Positions 8,388 through 64,000 of a stretch of DNA of 64,000 nt are shown here, one piece after another (position 1 is the first letter of the stretch; each line of letters begins with the position of its first letter). Under the pieces are notes generated by a model. It saw only the letters and a list, made by a program, of their open reading frames with translations. It searched no databases and was not told the origin of the DNA. A program made the position numbers and the translations under genes. This DNA is from Tubulanus polymorphus (taxonomy: Eukaryota > Animalia > Nemertea): contig NC_134028.1 of the NCBI RefSeq assembly GCF_964204645.1, positions 16,499,653 to 16,563,652 of the forward strand. The letters are read 5' to 3'.

Positions 8388-9566
8388 TTAACTTTCTTCG
8401 ATCAGCCTCTTAGGTGGTACAGAAACACGACAAGATTTCCTGACAGTTATAGGAACACTATGGGCTTGGAGTTGATCAGAAACTTCAACCAAATCACCTG
8501 AGTTTCTAACTCCACTCTCAACATCTGGGTTTGAACCTTTTTGAGTACCCAGATCAGTATTGACTGGAGGTATCACTGGTACAGTAACACTAGGCATATC
8601 ATATTGTCGATTATCTACATCATCTTCACGACTACTATTTACATGAACATTTTCACTACAGGGAAATAAGTGATCAATGTGACAATAACGATATCTGCCA
8701 CCAACCCTAACTAGGTAGGTAAGAAGACCTTTCCTGTGAATAATTACACGTGGAAAGTACTTTTCAAGACCTCTCACATTAGATTAAACCATAACATTTT
8801 GTTTCTCAACAAACTCTCTAGGTTTTGATGATACGGAATCATGATATCTCCTCTGAATATCCTGTTTTGCACACATTTTGATATACATATCTGGTTTAAT
8901 AAGTGACAGCCTAGATCTTAACTGTCGTTTCCTGAAAAGTTCAGCTGGGGACCTACCTGTTATCGAGCGTGGTGTTGTTCGATACATGAACGAAAAGTTA
9001 TCCAGTCTTTTAGACGGATCAACCTTATCAACTCAAAATGCATCAAAATGTGTTTCTTGAGCGCTCGTTTAACTATTTGTACTGACCTTTTGGCCGCCCA
9101 TTTGAGTTTGGTAAACAGGTGCTGGTGTATATTTGACACCATTATTACATAAGAAGTCATGGAATTCCTCCGAATTGAATGGGGGCCCATTGACACTGAC
9201 CAACTCCTTAGGTAATCCCTCCCGAGCAAAAACACTTCTCAAGGTATAAATCACTCTTGGTGCAGTGCAGCTGTTGATGACATCATAAAACATTCCAACC
9301 ATTTAGAAAAACTATCAACATTAATGAAGTAATGTTAACCTTCAAGTTCACCAAAATCTATATGAATCCTATCCCATGCACCATTTGTTGGTCGCCATGG
9401 CAACAATGGTACCTTAACCGGAGCATTTCTCATACTAAGACACAATTGACAGTTTTGTACTAAATTTTCAATATCTTGATCAATTCCAGGATACCACAAA
9501 TAATTTCTAGCTAAAGACTTGATACCAACAATACCAAAATGTTTTTAGTGCAACTCATTCAACATG
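8388..9566 (-). pseudogene. Gypsy/Ty3 integrase (frameshifted), element 1
   Basis: HHCC region (YLWYPGIDQDIE...C..C), WDRIHIDF, LRSVFAREGLPKELVS.NGPPF, YRTTP..ITGRSPAELF, GPY/F-like C-terminus. Confidence 0.9.
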
Positions 9567-9726
9567 AGTAATAGGAAAATGACGCTTTCAGATATGGAGG
9601 TCGGAGGTCGAGACACCACTCATCACCACAAGTAATTTTTTTTCCTAATAAATAGGAGAGAGTGAACAACATACAGAATAAATTGATGTTAATGAAAATC
9701 AATATTATTGTACATATTGTAAACAA
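9567..9726 (+). repeat. Left TIR of Polinton element 1
   Basis: Reverse complement of ~19608-19767; the outer ~58 bp are identical and the inner part is imperfect. Confidence 0.9.
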
Positions 9727-9864
9727 TCTTTTTATATTAAATCTATCAACATTAACACTTCCCATTTTAAATACTTTTTTTAATACCATTGAATAACTAA
9801 CATTTCCAACTGATAGTAAGGCTCCATTATATAATCCAATTATTATCCACTTATTATCACTCAT
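9727..9864 (-). pseudogene. Truncated small Polinton membrane-protein gene (homolog of 59379-59620)
   Basis: MSDNKWIIIGLYNGALLSVG...KMGSVNVDRF matches the sequence at 59379+; runs directly into the TIR. Confidence 0.75.
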
Positions 9865-14312: not shown

Positions 14313-14605
14313 TACAAAATAGATACTTATACAAAATACTATCCTAATTCATACACGTCTGCATGATTTAAATTCATCTTAATTTTTCATCAACTCATCC
14401 CTCTTCATTTGTTCTTTTCTTTAATTTGTTCTTTGTGTTCAAGGTGTCTGAACATCCGTTTTGATATACAGCCTTTATGGCTTTGTTCAGGCTCCTGTCA
14501 CCTCATTGTTTGTAATTTACTATTGTTATTATTAATCTTGTACATATTGATGGTGACAAATAAACTACTATACTATTCTTATAGAACCAAAATTAAAATA
14601 TCTAG

Positions 14606-15139
14606 ATGAAATATTTAATATATTTTCTATGGAAGATCATACACCAGAATATAAGCAATTGCTTGAAAAAATGAAAATGATAGAAAATAAAAATGGTGAA
14701 ATAACTAAAAAAGATATTATAAAAACAATTATTCCATCAACATTTAACACACAAGAAAAGAAAATGTATTTATATCTATTATTTAACGATTATTATAAAA
14801 AACCCTAAATTAACAGAAGAAGATATGGAAAATATAAAAGAAACATTCACAAACATATTAAAATATTATGTGGATAATAGAATAACAGATTCAATTAATT
14901 ATGAATTCTTTTTAAATAAGATTGTAAATTTTTTAAACATCGATATTATAATTCCATTTGATGAATTAACGAATAAAAAGAAACAAAGAGAGCGAGATGA
15001 AATGTGGTACAAGATAGAACTTTATTTAAATGAGAAAAATGAAATGGAAGAACCTAAACAAATTATACAAGAACAATTAAATGGAAAAGAAGAAACCAAT
15101 AGTGATTTCGAGTTTGATGATATTAATCCATTTCAATAA
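14606..15139 (+). pseudogene. Polinton hypothetical gene(s), convergent with pPolB
   Basis: AT-rich ORFs 14629-14808 and 14825-15139 inside the TIR-bounded element; no recognisable motif. Confidence 0.45.
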
Positions 15140-18100
15140 CCATAAGGTAATGTTTTTATACCATCATCTAAAATATGCCTTTTATCATCAAATGGATTCA
15201 AGCTAGTCTTTTCAACTTCATTAATGTACATCTCGTGATCTTCTGATCTTAAACAATTCATTTTATGTTTCATTACAATTGAGTTATATAAACACTTTAT
15301 ATAATCTTGAAATTCTATATGTTTATCAACCACATGTTTTGTTTAACTTTTTAGCCTCATGATAGCCTCATTTTCTATAACTGTACATTTTACTTCTTAT
15401 CCCAACAAATTCAATCATTTCATCACCCCCTAATTCATCTTTAAACTTACCAGGAATCTTTTCATTATCATTGCTAAATAGTTCATGATCTTTGGGATAA
15501 TTGCTAAAATCAAAATGATGTTTTATGTTTTTAAGTCTTTTGTTATATCATTTGTCTTGATTTTTAATATGTACGCATCCGTATTGGCCGCAATTAATGG
15601 ATTAATGGAAATCCACAGTTAAATGTTCCATCTTCAGTTGATAAATCATAGACATAATCTGATGGGATATATATTTCAAATAAATCTTTAACTTCTTCAG
15701 TTATTACTTTTTCTGTATGCCTTAGATTAAAACAATTTGGCATAGATTTAATCAATCCAATATTCACATCAAAACCTAATGAACTGCATAATATATGTAA
15801 TCCTGATAAAGCAACTTTTCCTTTTTGTGCAAATGTTATTTCTGGAGAACTCATAAATTTTTTAGCACCATCTGCAGCATAAAATCCAATGAAGAACCAT
15901 TTTCTTAAATTATCTTTTGCATTTAATACATAATCTGGAACTATCTTTTCTTAAGTTGAAGTATTACTTTTAACTATTGCATGAATATAGAATTCGTCTT
16001 TATATTTTATAGCAAAATCTTTAGGGTTATTAACGAGTATTCTATAAACTGCTGATGATTTCATAACATCCATGATTCTAAATGTTTTATGTGAATAAAC
16101 TTCTTTACAGAATTTCTTAATTCTTTCTAATAATTTCAAGTCTTGATTGCAAATAATAATACCAACAATATTTAAAATATATGTAAATAAAAATACCAAC
16201 AATATTTATTACCCCAAACACTATTATACACACCTGCTGAACCATCTCCCATGAAAAATCCTTTGATTAAATATTCTTTTTCTTCCAATGTTTCGGGTTC
16301 TATATTGAAAATATTATCAATTATTTCATTAAATGATATATGATTCCTTCTTTGGAAAAATCTTTTATGTAATAATTCATCTCCAATTTTTATATTAGTT
16401 GGTTTTATTTCATCACCATTTCGTTTAATTAAACTATGATCTTCTGTAACATCTACAAACCCTAATTTAGTTCTAACTCTATAGATTTTCTTATTTGTTT
16501 TATGCCTAATTTTATTCTTAAATTTTTTCCATCCATTTCTTGTCCAAACATCCATTAATTCATTTATTTGTATTAATTCTTTTTCACCATACGAATTATA
16601 ACATTCATTATGTTTTGGAATTATTTCTGAAATTCTTCTAATTAATATCTTACTATTACATTTTAATAATATTGGGTGTCAGCTGTTACAGAATCAAAAT
16701 ATAATATTTCAATATGCTTTTCCCCAAAAAGTGGTTGTAAAACATTATAATAAAAATCATACATAAATAATTTTGATACTTCTAAAACAGTTGAACCAAT
16801 GAATATAGGTTTATTAAATTTCATTGACGTTCTTTTTAATTTAACTGCTGTTAAATAATCTTCAAATCTTTTATTTCCTAAATGTCTAGGACTTGATTGT
16901 AAATGTCTGAATCGTTCCGAATTATTTACTAATTCAATATAACTTCTATTTCTAATATTTTCACATGTTTTACCATAAAAACTATTATTCATTAATTTGA
17001 AGAAATCTTTTTCACAATCTGTTTTTGATATGGTTCTCTGTTGTGTATTAAAATCTATATATTTTTCTAACAACTTCGATTGATTAAATTCAATATATCG
17101 ATGTACTTTCTTTAATTTCATTCCTTGTTTAAGATAAAATTTTAACATTCTATAATGAACAATATAATTGTATTTATTATTTTGAGTAAGTATTAATTTT
17201 TCTGTAAAAACATTTTTTAAGATTTTTTATCTTAAAGTGACTCCAAATATCTAATGTTCTATTAAAAACTTCATCTTTCATATACTCCTCTTTTAATTGA
17301 TCATAAAATTGTTATTTTAATAATTCTGTTTCATTAAAATCATCATGTGTTTTATAAAATGAATAAGGAATTGCGCCTTTATATCTCAATAATTTAAAAT
17401 CTTGTTCATTTGGGTAATAATGTCGAGTTATTACAAAATCATTATCAACTAAACTTTTTGCTAAATTATCTAATGAACTTGCTAGAAATCTATAAGAATC
17501 TAAAAATCTAATGCAACCAAATTAAAATGAAATATAATTTTCGGATGTCTTAGCTAATAGTTTAAAATCATATTTTCTTACATTTGTACCATTCATAGCA
17601 TTATATTCTTCTATTTCTTGGAGAATTGTGCCAAATTTTCCTGATAATTGTTTTATAAATAGATGGGTATCATAGCCCGATAAATTATGAAATAATATTG
17701 GTACGAAATTAACTTTCTTAGCTTGTAAATTACAATCTTCATGAGCAGCTCCACGATATTTTGCATTTAAATGATCATGATCTCTAACTTTTTTATCAAA
17801 TGAATGAAAACGTTTTTCACAGTAACAACAATGAGTTGAGTAATTAAAATAAATTTCATCTTCTTTTGTCATAACTATTCTTTTATTTTTGTTTAATAGT
17901 TTTGCAAAATCACTTTCTAATTCAATTATTTTGTTACAAAAATTATTAACTACATCTTCACCTCTAAAAGGAATATATTGACTTTGATATAATTCAGGAT
18001 AATTTGATTTTATGTAAATTCCATAAGCAGCAGCTCTTTGATGAACTTTTTTAATTGTGTTTATAATTGGTGGATTGAATCATATCTTCATTTAATTCAT

Positions 18101-19682
18101 TTCCTTTATCCATTGATTTTAAAATTTGCTTTTTATTATATATTTCTTTTCTATCTTGATTAGTTAATTCTTTATTCAACGATTCAAAATCCCCATAAAT
18201 TACAAATGGCACTCTATTTTTTAATTTATGATTAGTAAATTTCAATTTATAATCTTTTTCTGTTGGCATTATTAATTTACATAAATCTTTATTATCACAT
18301 AATTCTTTATGTTTTAGTAATGCATTTTCAGTTCTAAGTTTAGATAAACATTTTCAACATAAATATATTTTGCTATGACTGTTGAAATCACTTTCTGTTC
18401 TAAAGAATAAATCAATTTGTTTTAACCACATATAATGTTCATTTTCATCTTTTTTGTAATATAACAAATCTATAAAATTTTCATCGTCATAATGTTTTGT
18501 TAGATATAAAGCTTCTAATGTATAATCTTTAATATTTTCACCTTTTTTCTTTGGTAATTGCATTAATTCGAATACATTTATTTTTAAATCATTATCTTTT
18601 TCTATTTTAGGAATCATTTTTATAGTTACTGGATATTGATCAATTTCATATTTTTTTTCATATTTCTCGTAATTTGTCGTACAACAAACATTTTCCTGAG
18701 TTGGGTGTAAGCGACTAATAATTGACCATAGAAAACATTTATTATCTTTATTTTGAATATTTATTACTGCTTTTGTTGTAAATGGTAATTTAATATAAGA
18801 TGATGCTTTAATATCCTTTTCTGTTGTAAAGTTTGTGTCATTTTTAAACATTGTTTTACTTTTTGATGTTTTAATCATTTTTGTATTATAAACATTTAAA
18901 TCTAAAAATATAATTTCATTCAATGTTAAACCAGAACCCTCAAAATATCTTTCTTCAATATGTCGTTTAAATTCATTAAATATTTTTTCTAACCTCTCTT
19001 TTATTTGCGTTTTTGAAATTATTTCTTCAGAGAGTGTTTGAATATCATAATCCATTTCATCTTCTGACTTTAAAAAACTTACTTTCCCAGAAATACTAAT
19101 TTTTGGATATTCAACATCTGTTACCAAATCTAGTATTTTTTCCATGATTTCAATAAATTTACTATAATCTTCTATTGTTGTACATTTAAAAAATCTAAAT
19201 ATAATAGCTGCAGGACCAATTTTACTACGTAATGTTTCTAATATTTCAATTATATCTTTTATTTCTAGTGAATCGATATAATTTCTAACATTTTCCATGT
19301 AAGGTTTATTTGAAATGGATTTAGTTTTTGAAGTTGATTTTTTTACTTGTTGAGGTTTATCATCAAAATATTCTGATCCTCAAACATTTTTATTTGAATT
19401 TTGATAGTGTTTTTGTGATTCGAGATGTCTTTTATAATTCCTTTTTACTATAAATTCATTACAAACAATACATTTAATTTCATCTTTTTTCATATCATCT
19501 AATCGTTCTTTTCTTTCATTGGAATTTTCTGGAGTTTCAAAATCTATTACATTTTTCATATGATTTGTAGATTTTTCATGACGCGATTTTTGATATTTAT
19601 CAATGTATTTTTTACAATATGTACAATAATATTTATTTTCATAAACATCAATTTGTTGTGTGTGTTGTTCACTCTCTCCCAT
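15133..19682 (-). pseudogene. polB: Protein-primed family B DNA polymerase (pPolB) of Polinton 1, intein-containing, frameshifted, internal deletion near 17215
   Basis: N-terminal C2H2 fingers; SSYIKLP/INIQNKDNKCFLWSI; VIYGDFES (ExoI); RDHDHL..YRGAAH..CNL; FHNLSGYD (ExoII); KLMNNSFYGK (motif B); YFD|intein|TDAY; LNPFDDKR. Confidence 0.93.
15583..16692 (-). mobile_element. Intein with LAGLIDADG homing endonuclease in pPolB motif C (degenerate)
   Basis: Block A SVTADT(P)ILLK; block B VDVTEDHSL; block C LIKGFFMGDGS; block D KIVPDYVLNA; block E FFIGFYAADG; block F YVYDLSTEDGTFNCG; terminal Asn followed by Thr (IAAN|TDAY) once an 8-bp duplication is removed. Confidence 0.92.
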
Positions 19683-19767
19683 TTATAAGGAAAAGAAATC
19701 ACTTGTGATGATGAGTGGTGTCTCGACCTCCGACCTCCATATCTGAAAGCGTCATTTTCCTATTACT
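19608..19767 (-). repeat. Right TIR of Polinton element 1 (contains the pPolB start codon)
   Basis: Inverted match to 9567-9726; the ATG at 19682 lies inside it. Confidence 0.9.
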
Positions 19768-19773
19768 AACATG

Positions 19774-20395
19774 ATCTGTTTGAACTTTGGTGGTATAACA
19801 ACTCTCAATCCCAAAAGTATGCAACCCTGATTCACAGATAATTCATTTCTGCGCCTAAAATAAGGCAAAATATCAGGATCATTGCAGTGATTAGGCCAAC
19901 CATTAAGTATATGTTGTGACATTGTTGGATCTTTTCTTATCTCAGACTCAATGTCTGCAGCATTAATAGGTAACACATTCACATACGTAAAATAATTAAT
20001 ATCCAGTTCCACTGCTTCCATCTCAGCATTAGGATTAGGAATTCCAGACAACATATCACAGTTTTCATGATCTTTACCACTTCTATGCACAATTTCGTAA
20101 TCATATGCCATTAAAGTAAGTGACCTCCTTTGCAGACGCAGAGCTGCCAGGGCCGGAACTCCTGTTTTCGAACCAAAAATTGTTACAAGAGGTTTGTGGT
20201 CAGTGACCAACAGAAACTTTCTACCGTATAGATATTTGTGGAAGTGCTCGACTCCGTAAATGATTGAAAGAGCCTCACGTTCAATTTGGGAGTAATTGCG
20301 TTCTGCAGGAGTCAAACTACGATTACCATATGCTATGGGTTTCTCTGAGCCATCTGGAAACTTTTGAGAAAGAATCGCACCTAAACCATACGGAT
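19774..20395 (-). pseudogene. Gypsy RNase H region, element 1 (continues into integrase at 9566)
   Basis: PYGLGAILSQ...PIAYG; AERNYSQIEREALSIIYGV..FHKYLYGRKFLLVTDHKPL; VVIPPK. Confidence 0.92.
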
Positions 20396-20422
20396 TTAAA
20401 ATATTATTAAAAATTGAAAAGG

Positions 20423-20608
20423 CTATATGTTCAATAGATTTTTATTCGATATATTGTAAAATGAGTTACATAAACTAATATTTACTAATTCTAAATCAAC
20501 ACAATTTCTAAATTCTCTATCTAGTTGTATCAATAAATAATGAGATTTATAATTTTTAAATCTTCTTGAATCAACAAATATTCTATATTCTTTTGATTTA
20601 TCTTGCAT
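20423..20608 (-). pseudogene. 5' part of penton/minor-capsid-like gene
   Basis: KEYRIFVDSRR...LCNSFYNIS is nearly identical to the 58245+ protein. Confidence 0.65.
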
Positions 20609-20625
20609 TTATTTTACGTATTTTT

Positions 20626-20964
20626 TCATTCGAAATCTATATCATGACATCCTCTTTCATTCTTACCTTTGTATATGAAATAGAAATCACCAGAACACAC
20701 TTCTAGATCTTCACTAGATAATCTATGAAATCTATCTGGTAAATTTGGTCTATATTTATATCTATTTCCTTTTAATCCTTCATATTCTAAGTGAATAACT
20801 AATTTATTACCATATCTATTAGTAATTGTTTCAATATTTGTAATTAAATATCTCTTATGTAATGTTAATTCGGTTAACTTTTTGAATTTATAATATACAG
20901 ATTTGACATTTGTAGTATCTTTTATTCTATCTAGGAATTCACTGTGTATTTGTTTACTCTCCAT
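20626..20964 (-). CDS. Small Polinton protein, possibly OB-fold ssDNA-binding (112 aa, open)
   Basis: Homolog of 57875-58230; beta-rich pattern FKKLTEL...YLITNIE...YGNKLVIHL...LPDRF; the fold is an inference. Confidence 0.55.
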   Translation of the reverse strand: MESKQIHSEFLDRIKDTTNVKSVYYKFKKLTELTLHKRYLITNIETITNRYGNKLVIHLEYEGLKGNRYKYRPNLPDRFHRLSSEDLEVCSGDFYFIYKGKNERGCHDIDFE

Positions 20965-22180
20965 TTATTATACATATTTTTTTATTAAAATTGATTTCAT
21001 TGATATTATATTCATTTATATAATGTTCATATTTGTGAATATTATTAGAGTAATAGGGTAAGTGTTGTTTCAGATTAAAGGTTGAAAGGTTGAGTGAGTA
21101 AAAAATAAAAATAAATTCGAGTGTGTATTTATTTTTATCTTTTATGAGCTCGACCTTTCGACTTTTGATCTGACACAAGACTTACCCTATTACTTACGTC
21201 AGGTCGATTTGTTTTATTGTGAGAAATGGCCGGTTATAGTTCAAAAAGACCGACAGGCCAATGGGTATCGCTTTCAAACACTTTTTAATGATAATTGGAC
21301 CGACAACTTCAATGAAAATATATGATGAAGTTTATTTCATTCAAAAAAAACTTATTTCACTGTATGAAAAACGCAGGTAGCCATAACGCGCGCGTCAACA
21401 TGAGCACATATGCTGTCACTGTAGCGTGTGCAGTGTGAGACACTTTGATCTGCCAGCACGCGCTTGCCTCGCGTAGTACATATATGGCTAGACGCCGACT
21501 GTTGCGATGCAATACGTCTGCAGTAAATGAGTAAACGCACGCCACATTGCCATACAACTCGGCGATAATTTCGGTCTTACTGTATGGCTTTCAAGGACAT
21601 TGTCTAGCAACCTTTCAAATTTAAAGACTCCCGCTGACTTTCCCGGCACAAAACAAGGAATTTAAGACCGCTACGGTACCGACCCTTTTGATATTTTTGA
21701 TATTATTGTGATCAACTTCTAGGCCTATCACCATTCAAACCAATATAATGTCAAATAATCTTGAATACAACGTAACCGGATCTATTTTGCAGCGTATTTA
21801 ACCCCATTTATCGTATCTTTCGTTAATTCAATGACTTTAAAAATGGTGCGCTTTGGTTCGCGGTAAACATACACGACACCATGCCGAACCACTCGTAATA
21901 GCTCTCTAAAAATAAGTAACCTATCGTACTACTCGTCTCGTAGTTCATAATTAAACATACCTGTAAATGCTGAAGGTATCGTAGTGAGAAATATCTTCTG
22001 ACACCTGACAAGAACGCCATTTATCGGATTTTGCATACCTTGCACTATATTTTCAATCTGAAAGCATATTGAAACGTAGGTACAAGAGTCAATTTACCTT
22101 ATTATTGTCTCACTGTGAATTCTACTAACATATCGAAGATATACACGCCACACAGTTGGGCTTAACTGTAATCTAGAATC

Positions 22181-22699: not shown

Positions 22700-23036
22700 A
22701 TTACAGTACAAAATGTTAATTCTAGTATATTAAATATTTTACCTTTGAAGAATGTGAACGAATTTGGAACGCAAATAAAATATTTATAATTTATCAGAAT
22801 GTGATTTTAAACCTTTTATTTCTCAATTTAATAATTTGAAATTAGAAATCATAATGGATATTTGATTGATTTAAATAAATTTCCTGTAATTTATGAATAA
22901 GTTATGAGATGTAAAGATTAATCATTATTTTTTTTATAATAGAAAATATGAATATTAATGTAGGACCGAGTATATCTTTTGGATTTGATTTTAAACATGG
23001 TAAAGAAATGAGAATTAAACATATGTGATGACTGAT
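22700..23036 (+). pseudogene. 3' part of penton-like gene and start of the next gene (Polinton element 3); continues after 30441
   Basis: Nucleotide homology to 58790-59110 (TTTGGAACGCAAATAAA...GTAGGACCGAGTATA). Confidence 0.75.
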
Positions 23037-52700: not shown

Positions 52701-53256
52701 GTCAACATGAAAATATTGATACGTAAATCGAATCCATATCATAAGCATACTTATTATTGTACAAATGAAATTAGGAAATACGACAAATTAACAGTTCATT
52801 AATACTTAAATAATGCTTAAAGTTATCGCACAGTTCACATCGCTCGCAAGCAGCTCGCAAGTTAAAAAGATTTCATCGCCAATTAAAATATATTACAAGC
52901 TCGAAGTTAAGATATTCCAAATTAAGAGTTCTTTATTTCTAATATTTTATCGCACAGCACAGTGAAATATACCACAAGTCAAAAAGAGTTATTTAGTTCG
53001 AATTAAAAGATAGTATGAATAAAAAGTTCATTAATTTCATTTATTCTATGAATTAATTTAAAGATTTATTTCAACAAAAGAGTTTAATGCACAGTTCAAA
53101 TATATTGCAGTTGTATTGTGGATGAATATGTTTGAATAAATATCGTGCTTTCAAATGTTCTTGAAAAATCGCCAAGTGAGGATTTTACCTAGGGGATTTT
53201 TATCTACAACCATCTAAAATGCCCCAGGCCCAACATCCAGTAGGTTTATGGCGAAA

Positions 53257-53708
53257 AAATCAAATACATTTATTTTTAGATTATTATCTCTTTCTATTTT
53301 TGGGATATTTTTAAATCTGACAGGATAATTATCTATCTTATGATTATTTTCAAATGGTTTATAATGTTTTAATCTAAAACTATGTTGTTTATAATCTTCA
53401 ACTGGGTGTAAGTAACTAATTATTGACCATAGAAAACATTTATCATCTTCATTTTGTACATTTATAACAGCATTAGTTTTAAATGGTAGTTTGATATAAC
53501 TTGATCCATTTATATTATCATCTTTATAATATGATAAATTATTTTCATCAATTGGTTTCGATTTAGTTAATTTATTATATTTTGTATTGTATACATGTAA
53601 AGTCATAAATATTATTTCATCAAATATTAATCCAAATCCTTCAAAATATTTCTCTTCTATTTTACTTTTTATTTCACTATAACATTTATTTAATTTATCA
53701 TCTATATA
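53257..53708 (-). repeat. Inverted duplicate of pPolB segment 54413-54864
   Basis: ORF 53214-53606(-) is nearly identical to the C-terminal part of ORF 54275-54874(+). Confidence 0.9.
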
Positions 53709-53761
53709 TTATAGAATACATCATATTTTGAAATTTAAAAAAAAGTCAGTTACCCTTTAAA

Positions 53762-56700
53762 ATGGAAGCAGATAAGAAGTACTCCCGTCCAACATGTAAA
53801 ATCAATATAGATAAATCTAAAAAAGCAAGACATAATAAAACTAAATCTCACTTAGAGAATAAATAGAAATTAGAATATAAAGATGATATATTAGAAACTA
53901 AATTAGATGAAATGAAGAATGAAAAAGAAATATATAAATGTGATACATGTAATCAATCATTCAGTTACAAAAGATATTATGAACAACATTTAAAATCTAA
54001 AAATCATATTAGAAATATTAATAATGATATTTTAGGTGAAGATTATTTTGATAAAGATAATGATAAGAAACATAAGACAATTAAAAAAATGAAAAATAAA
54101 TTAAAAAATAAAAGACCATACATGGAAGATGTTAGAAATTATATTAATTCATTAGATAATAATAAAGAAATAGAGATAACTGAAGCATTTAAAAGTGATA
54201 TTGGTCCAGCAGCTATCGAGTTTAAATTTTATAAAGGTAAAACGTTAGAAGAAAATTAAAAACATTTAGAAAATATGAAAAATATTATAAAAATAATTAC
54301 TGATGTTGAATACCCTAAAATTAGTATATCAGTTAAAAGTAAATTTATAAAATCTGAAGATAAACCAATATATAATATAAATTCCCATTCACAACATATT
54401 ATTTCAAAACAACATATAGATGATAAATTAAATAAATGTTATAGTGAAGTAAAAAGTAAAATAGAAGAGAAATATTTTGAAGGATTTGGATTAATAGTTG
54501 ATGAAATAATATTTATGACTTTACATGTATACAATACAAAATATAATAAATTAACTAAATCGAAACCAATTGATGAAAATAATTTATCATATTATAAAGA
54601 TGATAATATAAATGGATCAAGTTATATCAAACTACCATTTAAAACTAATGCTGTTATAAATGTACAAAATGAAGATGATAAATGTTTTCTATGGTCAATA
54701 ATTAGTTACTTACACCCAGTTGAAGATTATAAACAACATAGTCTTAGATTAAAACATTATAAACCATTTGAAAATAATCAAAAGATAGATAATTATCCTG
54801 TCAGATTTAAAAATATCCCAAAAATAGAAAGAGATAATAATCTAAAAATAAATGTATTTGATTTATTCAAATAACCAAAAACAAAAGGTAATAATACAAC
54901 ACATTATACATTAGAACCTTTATATCTATCAAAAGATTATGATTCAAATGGTGTTATAGATATATTATATTATGCAAATCATTTTATGTGGATTAAAAGA
55001 AATGATTCATTTTTCAAATCAGAAAATGATTTTGAAAATAAAATATATCTATGTAGAAAATGGTTAAATAAATTCAGTAATGAAAGTGCATTATTAAATC
55101 ATAAAAGGTTATGTGATAATCATGATTATTGTAAAATGATTTTACCAAATGGAAAAGATAAAATATTAGAATTCAAGAAATATTTTTACAAAAATAAAGT
55201 ACTATTTGTAATATATGGTGATTTTGAATCACTAAATAAAGAATTAACTGATCAAGATAGAAAATAAATATATTATAAAAGAAAGAAATTAAATTCTAAT
55301 CAAAATGATGTAATTGATTATTCAGATCCTCTAATAACAAATACTATTAAAAAGATTCATCAAAGTGCTGCAGCTTTTGGGCTATATATTAAATCTGATT
55401 ATCCAGAACTAATTGAAAGTGAATATTATCATTATAGAAATGAAAATGTTATCAATCATTTTTGTAACTTATTAATTGAATATGAAGTAAAATTTCATAA
55501 ATTGTTAAATGAAAATACATGTACAGATAATAATTATGACAGAAGATAAAGAAGAATTTTAGTTTGCAGATAAATGTTTTTATTTTGAAAAGATATTTAA
55601 TCTAAAAGATAAAAAAGTAAGAGATCATAATCATTTGAATGGAAAGTTTAGAGGCGCAGCGCATGAGAATTGTAACTTACAAGCAAAGAAAATCAATTTT
55701 GTTCCAGTTATATTTCATAATTTATCAGGATATGACGCACATTTATTTATCAAACAGTTATGCCATAAAATAGAAGAAATCAATAATGAAATAGAAATAT
55801 TAAATTCAAATAGATCAAAAGATAAAATACCAACTTCTAAATTTAAGATATTAGCTAAAACATCTGAGAATTATATATCTTTCCAATTTGGGCGTCTAAG
55901 ATTTATAGATTCATATAGATTTTTAAGCAGTTCATTAGATAATTTATCAAAATCATTAGTTGATGATGAATTAAATATATTAAACTCTTTCCATGCTAAC
56001 TTCCTGAAAATCAGATCCCGAGACTGTGCTAACTTTATTTCGAAAAAAAATTTTTTTCGAAAAATATTGGGTTCTCAAACTTCTAGACGGTCTAATACGC
56101 TTCCCTACACTAAAATATGATGATTCAGCTTGTTTCTGATGATCTAGCAATTCTGGGGTCGTTAGGGGCCCCCAAAATGTCCAAAAAAAATTTGACCTAC
56201 TTTCGGGTCATTCGGGTACCCCTACCCCTAACTGCAGCTTCATATTCTCTCTATATATCTCCATTATATCCACTGCGCTATGCATAGACACCGTATACCA
56301 GCCGCTGTGTCTACTTATAAAGCTTTCAATTTTGCCCTACTTTGTTTACACAACTTGACCTCAATTCACCGATAATGACTTTCGTGACCTAGATAGATTT
56401 TATTCATACACCCGCCAGCGAACTCGAACAAAAACAAGTCCCTGGGGTTGCCGGGACTACCAGGCATACATACAAGCCGTATAAGCTTTATACATTTTAT
56501 GCCATTTAGACAGTAAGGGGATATATAGGTCATCCAACTGTGACGTGGCGTCACACCCGCACAAACTAGCGTCCGGTCACAGTTAGCATGGAAAGCAACA
56601 TTATCCAAATAATGATGATTTTCAATTAATGAGATATAAAGGAGCAATTCCATATTCATTCTATAAAAATCATAATGATTTCAATATAACTGAATTATTA

Positions 56701-57815
56701 AAAGAACAATTCGATGATGAATTAAGATCCGAATGTGTTAAAGATGAAATTTATAAAAGAACATTGAATATTTGCAATCATTTTGGGATGAAAAATCATG
56801 GACAATTAGTAGATTTATATTTAAAATCAGATGTATTATTATTAACTGATATATTTGAAAGGTTTAGAGATCTAAAATATTTTAATATAGATCCATGTCA
56901 TTGTTATTCGAGTCCAGGTTTAACTTGGGACTGTGGTTTAAAATTTACAGATATAAAAATGGATTTGTTAACAAATATAAATCAATTACGAGGAGGAGTT
57001 TCAGGTGTATTGGGTGATAGATATTTCAATATAAATGATAACCCTGGATATAAGTTATTATATATAGATGCAAATAATCTATATGGTTGGGCAATGATGG
57101 ATTACATATCCTAAATTCATTGGTAACAGAATATTTGATGAAAATTTAGCTGCAGTTAAAATGAGGAGAACTTCTATGAAATTTAATAAACCAATTTATG
57201 TTGGGGCAACAGTTTTAGAAATATCAAAATTATTAATGTATGAATTATATTATAACGTATTACAACCTCATTTTGGAGAAAAGCATATAGAAATCTTATA
57301 TTTTGATACTGACAGTTACATATAAAAGATTAAAACTAATAACCTAACAGATGATTTAAAAACATTAAAACATCATTTTGATTTCAGTAACTATCCAAAA
57401 GATCATGAATTGTTTAACAAAGATAATAAAAAGGTGCCCGGTAAATAAAGATGAATTAGGTGGTGAAGAAATGATTGAATTTATAGGCATTAGGTCTAAA
57501 ATGTATTCATATAAAACTAAAACTCATGAAGCTAAAAAGTTAAAAGGAATAACCAAAAGTGTAGTAGAAAAGAATATTCATTTCAAAGATTATATCAATT
57601 GTATATTCAATGAAGAAGTTAGAAAACATAAGATGAAATGTTTAAGATCAGAAGATCACGAGATGTTTATTGAAGAGATAGAGAAGATAAGTTTGAATCC
57701 TTTCGATGATAAAAGATATATTTTAGATGATGGAATTCATACAGTCGCTTATGGTTGCAATTTAGATGAATACTTAAAGTTCAAAAGAGAAGAAACAAAG
57801 AGAATGAGATTATGA
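53762..57815 (+). pseudogene. polB: pPolB of Polinton 2, intein-free, with deletion near 57105
   Basis: C2H2 fingers; INVQNEDDKCFLWSI; VIYGDFES; RGAAHENCNL; FHNLSGYD; YLKSDVLLL (ExoIII); YIDANNLYGWAM (motif A); LYFDTDSY at 57296-57319; LNPFDDKR. Confidence 0.93.
55984..56595. mobile_element. TTAA-inserting non-autonomous TIR element (piggyBac/Kolobok-like) inside pPolB
   Basis: TTAA-ACTCTTTCCATGCTAACT ... AGTTAGCATGGAAAG; removing it restores ELNILK|QHYPNNDDFQLMRYKG; right tip eroded. Confidence 0.7.
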
Positions 57816-57874
57816 AAAGGATTCTAACATGTTAATCGGCTTTAATTCAATTTTAATAAAAATATTCATAATAA

Positions 57875-58230
57875 ATGGAGAGTAAACAAGTACACAGTGA
57901 GAACAACAAATCATTTCTAGATGGAATAAAAGATATCACAAATGCTAAATCAGCAGATTATAAATTTAAGAAGTTAAATGAACACTAACAATTCATAAGA
58001 AGTATTTAATTACTAATATTGATAGAGTTACTAACAAATATGGAGATAAATTAGTTATCCACTTAGAATATGAAGGGTTGAAAGGAAATAAATATAAATT
58101 CAGAACATATTTACCAGATAGATTTCATAGATTATCTAGTGAAGATCTGGAAGAATTATGTTCTGGTGGATTCTATTTTATATGTAAGTGTAAGAATGAA
58201 AAAGGGCACCATGATAAAGATTTCGAATAA
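57875..58230 (+). pseudogene. SSB/OB-fold-like small protein (homolog of 20626-20964), frameshifted
   Basis: MESKQVHSE...YGDKLVIHLEYEGLKGNKYK...LPDRFHRLSSEDLE. Confidence 0.7.
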
Positions 58231-58244
58231 AATATGTAAAATAA

Positions 58245-59002
58245 ATGGTAGAATTAAAAGAATATACAATATTTGTTGATTCAAGAAGACTTACAAATTA
58301 TAAATCACATAATTTACTAGTACAATTAGATAGAGAATTTAAGAATTGTGTAGATTTAAAATTAGTAAATGTAAGTTTATGTAACTCTTTTTATAATGTA
58401 TCGGATAAAAGTCTTGATCATAATGCTTTAATGATTCACGTTAGGAGAAATAATAAATGGTATCATCTATTCATAAAACCAGGATTATATAATTTAGAGA
58501 CTTTAGCGCAAGAAATTAATAGAAAAGCTAAGACAAAAATGGGCGCAGCTGCTGGATTTGGAATTAAATTTATTAAAAGTGATTTTAATAATAAATTAAG
58601 AATAAAGTTAGCTAATGAAGAACAGCATAAATTTATAGTGAGAAAACCATAAGCTAAAATGTTAGGAATTGCACCAAATAAACTTCATGCAAATGTTGAT
58701 AGTATAGCAAATATAATGCCTTTTACACATTTTATATTTATTGCAATTTAATTAACCCTGTAAAAACATTTGAAGCAACTAAAGATACAATTTGTAATTC
58801 TGGTTTATTAAATATTTCACCATTAACAAATGTTGAACAATTTGGAACGCAAATAAATTATAATTTAGCTGAATGTGATTTTAAACCTTGTATTCCAAAA
58901 TCTAATAATTTTAGATTAGAAATTAGAAATCATAATGGATATTTAATTGATTTGAATAACTTTCCTGTGATATATGAATTAGTTATAAGATGTAGAGAGT
59001 AA
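58245..59002 (+). pseudogene. Putative minor capsid protein (penton)
   Basis: L..VSLCNSFYNV...IKPGLYNLETL..EIN pattern and C-terminal LEIRNHNGYLIDLNNFPV.YEL, as in Polinton single-jelly-roll pentons. Confidence 0.65.
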
Positions 59003-59018
59003 TTTTTTTGATATATAA

Positions 59019-59378
59019 ATTAATATAATAGTAGGACCGAGTATATGTTTTGGATTTGATTTTAAACGTGAGAAAGAAATGAAATTTGATATCAATGATG
59101 TAATAACACATATCAAAAATATTGCATTTTTGAATGAAACAACATTTGAATATGAAACAACAATAAATAAAGAAACTTTTAATGTAGAAAATATTACCGA
59201 TTTAATTAGAGAGTCTTTAAGATTTTATGAATTAGATGAAGATTTTATTATTGATGATATTAGAAAAATAATAACTGAAATATATGATAATCATAAAAGT
59301 AGTAATGAAATAAATGTTGAAATAATCATAACTAAGGTAACTAAATATTTTGAGGATAATTATTTTTTTGATAAATAA
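59019..59378 (+). pseudogene. Polinton hypothetical acidic protein (start codon mutated)
   Basis: Open frame; the homolog at 22948+ starts with ATG. Confidence 0.55.
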
Positions 59379-59620
59379 ATGAGTGATATAAGTGGATAAT
59401 AAATGGATTATATAATGGAGCATTATAATCAGTTGGAACTGTTGGTTATACAATGGTATTTAAAAAGTATTTAAAATGGGAAGTGTTAATGTTGATAGAT
59501 TTGATATCAATGATATTTCAAAATTAACGTTAGCAGTTACTTTATCTAATTTGACTATTCATTATTTGGAAAAACAAAAATATATTCCTCCTATATAAAT
59601 GCATCAAATTTTTACTAAAT
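59379..59620 (+). pseudogene. Small Polinton membrane protein
   Basis: ATAAATG start; hydrophobic; homolog at 9727-9864. Confidence 0.6.
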
Positions 59621-59622
59621 AA

Positions 59623-60038
59623 ATGGCATCTGCAATTATAACTATTATAGGATTGGCAATTGTTAACGCTTTAGCATTTACTGGTGGTGGATATTTGTTT
59701 AAGCATATTGATAAAAATAGTTCATTAGCAGAACAAAAAAGACATAACTTAGCGTTAGAAAAATATAATAATGCAGTAGAAGAATATAGAGAAAAAAGAC
59801 AAAACTATATGGATTATATCAATAGAGAATTTTATAATCAGAAAATTACACACATTTTCAATCAGTTGATGATGCAATGAGTTTATATAACGTAGTAACA
59901 AATAAAGAAAAATTACATCTATATAAACCTACAATATCAGATTATGATACCCCATGTAAAGAACAACAGAAATATGAAATAATTTGGATTTTAGGTGGAA
60001 CAGTTATTGTTATATTTGTACCGTATAAATTTACTAAT
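59623..60038 (+). pseudogene. Polinton membrane/virion protein
   Basis: MASAIITIIGLAIVNALAFTGGGYLF...EQKRHNLALEK; hydrophobic C-terminus in a shifted frame. Confidence 0.65.
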
Positions 60039-60065
60039 TGATTATATATTATTTTTGTTAAATAA

Positions 60066-60500
60066 ATGGGTGATAAAGTTGATAATAATGACATTATTCC
60101 TCATGATATAAATAAAACTAAATTAAAATCATATTTTGAAAAACAAATAGTAGAATTTGAAAATGATTAAAAGATAAAAAAGAAAAAATATTTAAAATCT
60201 AAAATTATATATTATTTTATTTTAAGTGGTTCAGTTACAATTAGTTCGGTAATTACATTTTTAGCAATATTCAGCCCATTAACGCCTTTAGCTATATCAT
60301 TTGGTGCGTTAGGATTAAGTTCAAGTGTTTTAACCGGAATAAAATCAAAATTAAATATAAAAGGTAATAAAGAAAAAATAAAATCTAATATAAAAGAATT
60401 AAATAAATTAAAAAATACATTAGATTATATAATAAGTTTAAATGGTAATATAACAATTCAAGAGCAGGATAAATTATTAAAAGAATTAATAAATTATTAA
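60066..60500 (+). pseudogene. Polinton two-TM protein
   Basis: ATAAATG start, one internal stop, two hydrophobic segments. Confidence 0.5.
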
Positions 60501-60516
60501 TTTTTTTATAATATAA

Positions 60517-61873
60517 ATGGTAGATAGTTTTCCAAAAGCTTTTCAAAATAAAAAATCAATTAAATATAATATTCCTGCAATAGATTTAAATAAAGATATT
60601 TCATATAGAAATGAAGATAATTCATTAATCAATTTAGATATTTATGTTACTGAAACTAATAATTCTAATGCAAAGATGGAAAATATATATAATTAATTTT
60701 AAAAAATTGAAAAATGAAAAACAATGGTTATTAAAATCTAATATGAAGTTTTGGCAAAACCAATAAATTGTGCAGTTTATTACGCAACAACAGGTTGTGG
60801 AATAAGTTGGAATGATCATTTGAATAATTCTAAATATAAATTAATTCAGATTCCATACTTATTTTCAAATAAGATTAATATCGAATGAATTAGACTCCTT
60901 TACCAGGATCTAGATATTTTAAAGAATAATAATATTAATTTATCAAAGTTTTATAAAATTTGTAATGAATCTAATATAAATATAAATAATTCTGATTTTA
61001 GAACAAAAATTGGAACAATAAGATCACTTCCTTGCCCTAAAAAGATTGCAGAATATTGTGCACTTCCCTTACCAATTAATAGATATTACAATATCTATAA
61101 TAATAAATTAGGTTATGGTAAAATAGAAAATATGGATTTAGAAACATTAAATTTCAATTAATTACCGAAATTCTATGATAATTTAAAACAAGAAAATAAT
61201 AATGGTTGGGTTTATTTTATTTTAGAAAATAGTGAAGGATTTGCAAAATCAGGTATACAAAGAATAAATCAATCAATTAGAACTTATTTGATTTGTATTT
61301 TAGGATCACAAGTTGAAACAAGATCCCCAATAATTGGAAATTTAAATACATCATTTGATAAACAGAAACAATTTAAAGTATTATTTGAAGATTCCATTCA
61401 TAATGATAGAAATTGATCGATTCCAGAAAACATTGTAAGATATCAAAATTATTTAGATAAATCACATGTAAGATTAAATGATTGTATAGGACCTAATCTA
61501 TTAATTATTTCTGATGATTTAATATTATAGATGGGAAATATAGTTGGTTATAATAATCTAATTAAAACTGCTACAATAAATAATTCATTTGGATTAAATG
61601 ATATAAATAAAACGATTATTACTGCTCCAAAATTAATGGAAGGTGAAAAAAATTAAAAAACATATTCAATCAACTGAAACTAAAACTAAGAATATTAAAT
61701 TGGATAATGATTCTAAAATAAAAGATTACAATACATCAGTAAATATAAAAACTGATATTATCCAACATGATATAATTAAAACTAATAATGATAATAAATC
61801 ACATGAAAATACTAAATTAGCTATAACTTGTATAGGAATTGTAATAGGAGGAATATTATATTTTGAATTTTAA
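60517..61873 (+). pseudogene. Conserved Polinton structural/unknown protein
   Basis: FWQNQ..CAVYYATTGCGISWNDHL and RINQSIRTYLICILGSQVETRS motifs; C-terminal TM; several frameshifts. Confidence 0.6.
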
Positions 61874-61888
61874 TTTTTTATAATATAA

Positions 61889-63628
61889 ATGGTAGAAGGT
61901 GGAGAAGATATTCCAATGGATACTTTTGGTGACGCCCCTGGTATAAGCGATGAACCACAACCTGATTTTGATGAAACTAATATTGATAATGATGGATGAG
62001 CAGCATATAATACTTATTTAGGTGAAGATGATTCTAGTGGGCCTATATTATATGATTATGATGAATTTAAAGATGATACTGAAACAAATTAATTAGTGAA
62101 AAATTAATAGATTATTTAAGAACCCGCGATGAGATATTAATTAAAACTAGACCACAAAGAAAAGGTTTAATTAATAGATTAGAAACAACAGAAAACCCTG
62201 AATTGAAAAAAAGAATTATTTTACATAAAACAAAGTGTAACAAATACAGTTATTGAAGAATTATTACCAAAAAATGTAACAGATAACATTGAACCAGAAG
62301 ATATTTCAGAACAAATTAGAAAAGATGACATACATTTCATGAATAATTTAAAAATGATTCATGGTATTATGATGTTGAATTAAGTAACAAAAGTTTATCA
62401 ATTCAATTATCTAAAATGGGACAAGAAGATCTGTACCATCCTGAAATGTTAGCAAGATCTTCAATTGAACGTTCAAAAGGTGGTTCAGAATTTAGCAGAA
62501 TTATATGGAATGCACTCGATAGAATAAATGAAGAAGAACCAAATGTTGGTATTGATATTAACAATTATTCACTATTTAAAAATCCAAATTTTAATCCTAC
62601 TGATGTTGATCCAGAAATGGAAGAGTATGGAGATCGATTAGATAAATTAAGAACTGCAACACCAGAAACATCGAGAAGAGACATTCAACCAATTGATAAT
62701 GGTTCAAGTCAATTACAAGTAGTAAAACATTTTGATAGCATGTTAGATACAGTTCATTCATTTGAAGAAGAGATGAATAGTATTTTAGATAGACCAAGTA
62801 CTGAAACTGGAACAAATCAAATACAACATTTATCAGAAAAAGGATGACTTGATTTAAATGAAGAAGAATTAAAAATATTTCCTGAACAAGCACGTAGAGA
62901 AATTAAAGGTATGCAAGAATCAACTGGTGAAATTGCTAATATTAAGATGAGATTTTCGAAAATAACCATGTTAGAGAAAGAATTAACTGATGCAAATGAA
63001 GAATTAGAACAATTAAAATTAGATAAAAATCTTCAATTAATCCAGGAAGCTAATTATGAAAGCAGAAAGTTAGCTTTAGAAAAACAAATTGATGATTTAA
63101 ATTATAACAAAGAATTACAGGAAAAAGAAAGACATATATTATTAAAATCATTTGATCTCAATCATATTAAAAAATTAGCAGTTATTTTTAGAGATTTATT
63201 GATAAAACCAGATTCTGAATTATCATTGAGAGATAGAATAAGATTATTATTTAAATTAGAAGGAATAACAATTCTTTCAATTCTAACAGCTGTAACTATG
63301 TTATTTACAACAATTGGTTTAGCAAATTCAAATATCAAATTCATTAAAATCTACGCCTACTCCCAATAAACCGGATAAACCTCCAAATAATAATAATTCT
63401 ATACAAGATAAAGTTAAGGAAGGTTTAAAGAAATTAGCAAAATATCTATGGGAACTATCAAAGAAATCTGCTACAGCATTACCCGGTGTTATTGCATCAA
63501 TTGTTGGTTTTATATTGAAATCTGCTGGAAATATTCTTAACTTTGCTGCTGAACATATTATTTTATTTTTAGTAACAGTTGTAAGTGCAATTATTTTTGG
63601 ATTAGTGAATATGATAAAAAATAAATAA
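61889..63628 (+). pseudogene. Large Polinton coiled-coil protein with hydrophobic C-terminus
   Basis: Acidic N-terminus; LRDRIRLLFKLEGITILSILTA; ALPGVIASIVGFILK...FAAEHIILFLV. Confidence 0.65.
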
Positions 63629-63649
63629 TTAATTTTTCTCTTAAAATAA

Positions 63650-63790
63650 ATGAGTGGGAGTTACATAAATCCTTCTAAAAATTCTAGAATATCTAATGCT
63701 ATTAAAGCAGATAGATCTCATCATATAATTACTCATAATCCTTCTAATATTAATCCTGATGAAACTTTATACGTTAGAATTCCTCGATTA
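63650..63790 (+). pseudogene. N-terminus of putative major capsid protein, cut by a LINE insertion
   Basis: MSGSYINPSKNSRISNAIKADRSHHIITHNPSNINPDETLYVRIPRL resembles Polinton double-jelly-roll MCP N-termini. Confidence 0.6.
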
Positions 63791-64000
63791 ATAAATAATA
63801 ATAATAAAAAGTTCTTTTAAAGCGCTTTTCCGCAGTATCCCACGCTCAAAGCGCTATCTCCTGGAAATACTGCAAAAACAGATATTTCTTTAGAGCGTTG
63901 CGAAAAGATCCTTCGTCAACGGTGGCACGAATGGAAATGGGTAGACTATTCCAAAGGTAGGGTGCACAGCTAGAAAAGGCACGGTCGCCATATTTGGATT
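63790..64000 (-). mobile_element. 3' end of an L2-clade LINE
   Basis: YGDRAFSSCAPYLWNSLP...FRNALKKYLF; AGCGCTTT...AAAGCGCT stem-loop; (TTA)n tail. Confidence 0.85.

Follow-up and report, generated by a model that had tools for sequence, protein, structure and literature searches.

A conserved two-part signal resembling poxvirus late promoters at the gene starts of one clade of animal Polintons

A two-part signal at Polinton gene starts

Inspection of a 64,000-nucleotide stretch of the genome of the nemertean Tubulanus polymorphus (RefSeq assembly GCF_964204645.1, contig NC_134028.1, positions 16,499,653 to 16,563,652 of the forward strand; the whole stretch is referred to as the window) reveals two decayed Polintons, copies A and B, in which nearly every gene begins with the sequence ATAAATG. 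The motif recurs in related elements and is the downstream part of a larger signal with fixed geometry, TAWWWTTT-N5-AWATAAATG, consisting of an A/T-only core, a short spacer, and an ATAAATG that holds the start codon. Within a single Polinton clade the signal is conserved and stands at a fixed position at nearly every gene start; the claim is limited to that clade.

A first-pass annotation of the window had listed eleven start codons with this motif and one mutated start at 59019. ATAA does directly precede ATG at all eleven (8 on the plus strand and 3 on the minus strand), and 59019 reads ATAAATT. Among the 13 starts that can be scored, 11 have ATAA before the ATG, as against 17 of the 419 remaining sense ATGs of these elements (Fisher p 7e-13); the shorter TAA precedes ATG at 11/13 starts and at 30/419 of the others. 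The broader claim that nearly every gene starts in this way holds for these eleven and had passed over two misses: 53762, the start of the polymerase gene pPolB of copy B, which reads TTTAAAATG and adjoins an inverted duplication, and 22948, which lies in a small remnant.

Most of the starts are fixed by protein homology, with residue 1 of intact relatives aligning exactly at 20608, 59019, 59623, 60066 and 60517, and falling at most one codon from 58245, 59379 and 63650. The placing of 57875/20964, 61889, 19682 and 53762 relies on position and on a weaker resemblance at the N-terminus, so the set of window starts is in part the first-pass annotation's own list; for this reason the related elements were tested with a fixed open reading frame (ORF) rule. 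Two further features described in that annotation, a frequent upstream T-run and very short intergenic gaps, are also present. At least four T residues lie within −15 to −10 at 7 of the 11 motif-bearing starts (compared with 2 of 30 internal TAAATG sequences), the remaining four having an A-rich core instead, and in copy B the starts lie 0–59 nt from the upstream stop. Over the whole window there are 63 matches to ATAAATG where 32.9 are expected, an excess partly inflated by local AT-richness and by a 458-nt inverted duplication that accounts for six minus-strand matches.

Anatomy of the signal

The anatomy was scored on one motif-bearing representative per orthologue group of the relatives (n = 17; all 17 groups include such a member), and several features are constant. 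First, the core opens with T at −19 (15/17 groups) and A at −18 (16/17). Second, T occupies −14, −13 and −12 in 14, 15 and 16 of the 17 groups, respectively; a T-run ends 5–8 nt before TAAAT in 12 groups, and the core is A-rich in the other five. Third, G or C is found at 1 of 119 core positions versus 12 of 68 spacer positions (p 2.5e-5). Fourth, a purine directly follows the ATG in all 17 groups. Finally, the related contig L002 contains nine copies of the strict 22-nt pattern, every one at a gene start, eight of these being annotated ORF starts.

TAAATG is known as the late initiator of poxviruses and entomopoxviruses. The bipartite layout found here agrees with the published vaccinia late promoter (PMC5294985, PMC12917281). 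Vaccinia late promoters are described as having a T-containing core 5–7 bp from TAAAT, which is then followed by G or A (PMC5294985); the vaccinia polymerase reads TAAA directly, at −1 to +3, and intermediate genes have an A/T core upstream (PMC12917281). Polymerase slippage on an initiator of the TAAA type gives 5′ poly(A) leaders (PMC6211774), and TAAATG is annotated on conserved genes of the salmon gill poxvirus (PMC4542343).

The idea that the T-run terminates the upstream gene is not supported: TTTTTNT or T6 occurs within 60 nt of a stop in just 8 cases out of 32, and although coding DNA contains less TTTTTNT than expected (9 versus 24.7), it is short of runs of seven or more A as well (27 versus 47.3). 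A scan for sigma-70 promoters gave matches at chance level only.

Related elements and controls

Six metagenome contigs (L001–L006), mostly intact and with capsids 73–99% identical to P0001, provide a survey of related Polintons. Among their ORFs of 100 aa or more, 32 of 35 have TAA directly before the ATG, compared with a background of 31/554 internal out-of-frame ATGs, and 20,000 shuffles of these contigs gave a mean of 2.9 and a maximum of 11 such starts. The ORF rule favours in-frame stops before the ATG and was therefore applied equally to controls, which yielded 7/135 in intein-bearing viral loci, 5/50 in three giant-virus bins picked by motif match, and 2/27 in the distant Polintons L007, L008 and L010. 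A further control comprised viral loci matching the full pattern (a scan of viral contigs gave at least 120, of which 80 had flanks); in those 80, with an 80-aa floor and the matched ORF excluded, the count was 40/447. Together the controls span 5–10%. L003 and L004 are near-duplicates, and the starts were also counted by orthologue group.

The three exceptions among the 35 all concern integrase genes. In two of them TAAAT or TAAAAT is still present but not in the reading frame of the ATG, which an initiator acting at the DNA level would tolerate; the third belongs to a split integrase, being its downstream part, and the first part carries the motif. The motif is also kept among relatives whose capsids are about 25% different and on accessory genes: a deoxynucleoside kinase (dNK) gene (L002, 10340–10981) and an HNH-like gene (L003, 5568–6083) each have the full layout.

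Two of the distant Polintons, L007 and L008, are filed within bacterial metagenome-assembled genomes (MAGs). Several of their starts have a looser TATAAA, ATAAA or AAATA right before the ATG with A/T-rich sequence upstream, resembling iridovirus-type bins.

Translation and mRNA processing

A signal at this position might act on the message, through stop-start coupling, through Kozak bias, or as the upstream gene's poly(A) signal. The TAA shares the frame of the ATG and is the most frequent stop (32/36), AATAAA is present in 20 of the 35 relative starts, and intergenic gaps are short. However, it seems very unlikely that the motif is explained in this way. First, the TAA serves as the upstream stop at just one of 36 relative starts and one of nine in copy B. 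Second, among those 36 starts (23 with a tandem neighbour, 4 divergent and 9 with no neighbour detected), all four divergent ones bear the motif though they have no upstream gene on their strand. Third, 15 of the 35 starts read TATAAA or a TATTAA-type sequence at −5, not AATAAA. Finally, animal messages favour a purine at −3, the opposite of the T found there in 32 of the 35 relative starts; in the control viral loci −3 is a purine at 90/135. An explanation through translation or processing is thus already largely refuted, and the counts in the window and relatives dispose of all three alternatives that the first-pass annotation had named (AT background, stop-start coupling and Kozak bias).

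The transcribing polymerase

Since the bipartite layout matches the published poxvirus late promoter, we take a helper-virus polymerase as the best reading, and propose that the signal is probably a post-replicative promoter used by the RNA polymerase of a large co-infecting DNA virus, which would make these elements, integrated as they are in the host genome, virophage-type parasites. The helper polymerase would start transcription within the AAA of TAAAT, and its slippage would add a non-templated poly(A) leader, so removing the unfavourable T at −3 from the message. All genes, pPolB and integrase included, would be expressed only in the late phase of the helper. Transcription by a large-virus polymerase was already the first-pass proposal; the motif, its layout and the failure of trivial explanations speak for it, although the polymerase is one that we infer and the motif is not specific to poxviruses.

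Two other sources of transcription have to be weighed. The motif might be a compact promoter or initiator for host polymerase II, with the elements being autonomous nuclear viruses that have nearly leaderless messages and are perhaps aided by a VLTF3-like factor of their own. The TATAAA or TATTAA-type sequence at 15/35 relative starts fits host polymerase II, the elements are integrated in nuclear DNA and abundant there, and some copies carry a transcription-factor homologue (VLTF3-like). Nonetheless, we consider this unlikely, as a TATA box sitting on the ATG would place the transcription start downstream of the ATG, and the fixed core spans −19 to −12 instead of falling near −30. AATAAA also occurs inside each of the 34 coding regions examined and is not depleted there (150 versus 146.6 expected), which weakly fits non-nuclear transcription, but a host retroelement control behaves alike.

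Alternatively, the promoters may be of large-virus type but served by a polymerase whose gene lies on the element itself or on a companion linear element, or they may be a relic of a past helper. There is a precedent in the yeast linear elements, which encode a polymerase of their own and use TAAAN as initiator (PMC6211774); moreover, each element seen here is incomplete, and several conserved genes have no assigned family. Against this, L002 (11.5 kb, incomplete) has 15 genes and a pPolB start, and none of its genes has the length needed to encode a catalytic polymerase subunit; with no ORF longer than 485 aa except pPolB, no RNA polymerase of its own is seen there. The retention of the motif across capsids about 25% different, and on the dNK and HNH genes, argues for current selection and not for a relic. 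We regard this explanation, too, as improbable.

Returning to the helper-virus reading, three pieces of cargo support it: the dNK of L002, a VLTF3-like gene and an intein at a large-virus PolB site. The VLTF3-like piece in copy A, which does not figure in the first-pass annotation, matches Pfam PF04947 with 30.4 bits (cut-off 25, E 4e-7; Atlas 0.91, with a low recognition score). A word search and the PDB gave no homologues of it, and it does not align with the VLTF3 of the giant-virus bin G003. VLTF3 has been reported in a subgroup of Maverick-Polintons (PMC8502044, 10.1101/2023.10.06.561300).

The intein interrupts polymerase motif C of copy A; motif C is uninterrupted in copy B. Related inteins were found in 17 viral loci; in 11 of these the intein lies at YGD/SV of a PolB gene, with 40–46% identity over about 100 residues, and two of these 11 are labelled as giant-virus MAGs. 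The family also occurs in another large-virus gene at L018 and L019, which from its N-terminus we take to be topoisomerase II-like. Contact with large DNA viruses, which the first-pass annotation had suggested as a route for gaining the intein, would be supported by the shared insertion site in PolB. The intein-bearing viruses themselves, however, have TAA before ATG at 7/135 starts, and the intein therefore does not identify the helper.

As to the helper class, a pox-like virus would be the best-documented match, with an iridovirus-like virus as a real alternative. Among the matches listed, the contig L029 has ATAAATG at 6/7 gene starts, so the motif is not pox-specific and the helper need not be a poxvirus. 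The best solved match of its capsid (entries 6ojn/8hif, E 6e-113) is named Singapore grouper iridovirus, and L029 appears to be an iridovirus-like large-virus contig, representing a lineage of nucleocytoplasmic large DNA viruses other than poxviruses with a pox-like start signal. Three motif-matched giant-virus bins were rejected as helpers on account of their low count (5/50 ORFs). Scans of viral contigs for capsid, pPolB and VLTF3 found no relatives, and a scan with the capsid-start pattern found no match.

Several observations weigh against a helper polymerase. TATAAA and AATAAA, both of which host polymerase II uses, each contain ATAAA. The helper, the transcript starts and the poly(A) leaders are all predicted, and the test of the T-run as a terminator failed. 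Distant Polintons (L007, L008 and L010; capsid 37–42% identical) mostly lack the motif, and the relatives that have it are all of 20–27% GC and closely related, hence not independent origins. VLTF3 was not found in L001–L011, the closest relatives of the intein come from viruses without the motif, and the contig L002, in which no polymerase is seen, is incomplete.

More tentatively, and with somewhat more doubt than confidence, we suggest that this high-copy animal Polinton clade consists of endogenous virophages that exploit a pox-like or iridovirus-like host virus not yet recognised; they would be silent to the host polymerase and switched on by the late machinery of the helper, possibly tuning it with a VLTF3 of their own and perhaps serving as an inherited antiviral defence. 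If so, the helper class of any Polinton clade could be read from its gene-start motif.

Organization of the window

The window is repeat-rich and has about 37% GC, with LINE and Gypsy remains; the two Polinton copies (Table 1) form A/T-rich islands within it. No long repeats bounding either copy were found, and both are truncated. Pfam PF03175 matches pieces of pPolB in both copies with scores just below the cut-off because the genes are broken. A rve integrase and an A32 ATPase are present in the relatives L001–L003, neither being seen in the truncated window copies. A model of a capsid homologue is a double jelly roll (pLDDT 83.5) that matches the PBCV-1, iridovirus and mavirus capsids with TM of about 0.6. 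The adenain-like cysteine protease that marks Maverick-Polinton group 1 had no match among 21 proteins of the incomplete relatives. For genes with no assigned family, Atlas gave nothing, and PHROGs gave one weak match, to the HNH gene.

Table 1. Coordinates of Polinton features in the window
Feature	Position	Strand	Remarks
Polinton copy A	14557..21194 (about)	-	decayed; small gene, penton-like gene, intein-bearing pPolB
VLTF3-like gene (poxvirus late transcription factor family)	14557..15139	+	broken; convergent with pPolB and overlapping its end; 5′ end not located
Intein in pPolB motif C, copy A	15583..16692 (approximate ends)	-	broken; YFD/S...N/TD
pPolB start, copy A	19680..19686	-	ATAAATG; T-rich upstream
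Penton-like gene start, copy A	20606..20612	-	ATAAATG
Small conserved gene start, copy A	20962..20968	-	ATAAATG
Polinton copy B	53762..63800	+	decayed; pPolB then nine genes, the last being that of the major capsid protein (MCP), of which the first ~50 codons are present; many stops and frameshifts
pPolB, copy B	53762..57815	+	broken; protein-primed; without intein; start without strict motif (TTTAAAATG)
Small conserved gene start	57871..57877	+	ATAAATG; A-rich core upstream
Penton-like gene start	58241..58247	+	ATAAATG; A-rich core; label inferred, weak DUF5901 match
Broken start	59000..59021	+	full core-spacer-initiator layout, ATAAATT; residue 1 of L002 homologue aligns
Gene start	59360..59381	+	T-run and ATAAATG; only copy B start whose TAA doubles as upstream stop
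Gene start	59604..59625	+	T-run and ATAAATG
SLATT-like gene start (weak match)	60047..60068	+	T-run and ATAAATG
Gene start	60498..60519	+	T-run and ATAAATG
Gene start	61870..61891	+	T-run and ATAAATG
Major capsid gene start	63631..63652	+	T-run and ATAAATG
Major capsid gene, 5′ piece	63650..63800	+	double-jelly-roll; 76–87% identity to six full-length 414–415 aa proteins

Both copies contain insertions. In copy A the penton-like gene is interrupted by a Gypsy fragment (Gypsy RNase H, about 19750–20420), and a 68-bp inverted repeat with a 10-nt loop lies at its upstream end (21049–21194). The pPolB of copy B contains a higher-GC insertion at about 56000–56590, and just upstream of the copy lies the inverted duplicate of part of this gene (53253–53710 versus 54411–54868; 458 nt, 99% identical). 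There are two more small Polinton remnants, at 9562–9860 and 22720–23020; the former repeats the junction found upstream of where pPolB starts in copy A, which suggests that a rearranged unit was copied as such. The region 57500–63800 is fully covered by contigs from a single public run, with 7,000 records of variants, and the Polinton family is therefore abundant in the organism of that run.

Comparison with known systems

Animal Polintons are widespread, and no virions of them have been observed (10.64898/2026.06.19.733378). A clade-wide late promoter of large-virus type would provide a sequence-level and directly testable argument for the helper dependence of some of them. It could also explain the occurrence of VLTF3 in Polintons, and the helper-virus reading predicts an undiscovered large DNA virus in the host.

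The closest likeness of the signal is to vaccinia promoters of the late and intermediate classes, which share the TAAAT(G) over the start codon, the purine after the ATG, the A/T core with a T-run 5–8 nt upstream and a minority A-rich class. In contrast to vaccinia, the signal here is on a small integrated Polinton without a visible RNA polymerase and is known from sequence alone, nearly all genes including pPolB and integrase use it, and there is a fixed TA at −19/−18. The yeast cytoplasmic virus-like elements (pGKL) are likewise A/T-rich, linear and replicated by a pPolB, with a TAAAN initiator and 5′ poly(A) leaders (PMC6211774), but they encode their own polymerase and have no capsid or integrase.

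In gene content the elements resemble the Maverick-Polintons and adintoviruses (Polintoviricetes), having pPolB, rve integrase, A32 ATPase and a double-jelly-roll capsid; no adenain-type protease was detected in the relatives, whose contigs are incomplete. The word promoter does not occur in the available text of three accounts of such elements (PMC8502044, 10.1101/2023.10.06.561300, 10.64898/2026.06.19.733378). Polinton-like elements related to mavpol2 occur in entomopoxvirus occlusion bodies and have been proposed to be poxvirus hyperparasites (Barth et al. 2024, PMC11296320). These, too, are animal elements, adjoining the mavpol2 capsid clade; the evidence there is co-packaging, and here it is promoter grammar. 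In the main text of that paper, as available, the words promoter, motif, transcription and VLTF do not appear.

The arrangement as a whole recalls mavirus with CroV, Sputnik with mimivirus and Gezel-14T with PgV, in which an element with integrase, pPolB and a double-jelly-roll capsid uses one large-virus-type promoter across its genes. That virophages share the late promoter of their helper, as the first-pass annotation had noted, is documented for mavirus, for which late-phase expression has been proposed (10.1101/068312). Those systems have protist hosts, Imitervirales helpers and other motifs, whereas the capsid here is of the Maverick-Polinton type; the capsid relatives found are Polinton-type loci, and we do not claim membership of Lavidavirus (Maveriviricetes). 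We found no report of a promoter of this type in animal Polintons in the literature searched (supplements, subscription papers and Repbase lay outside its scope). Promoter sharing is already known for protist virophages; a probable large-virus late promoter in animal Polintons appears to be new.

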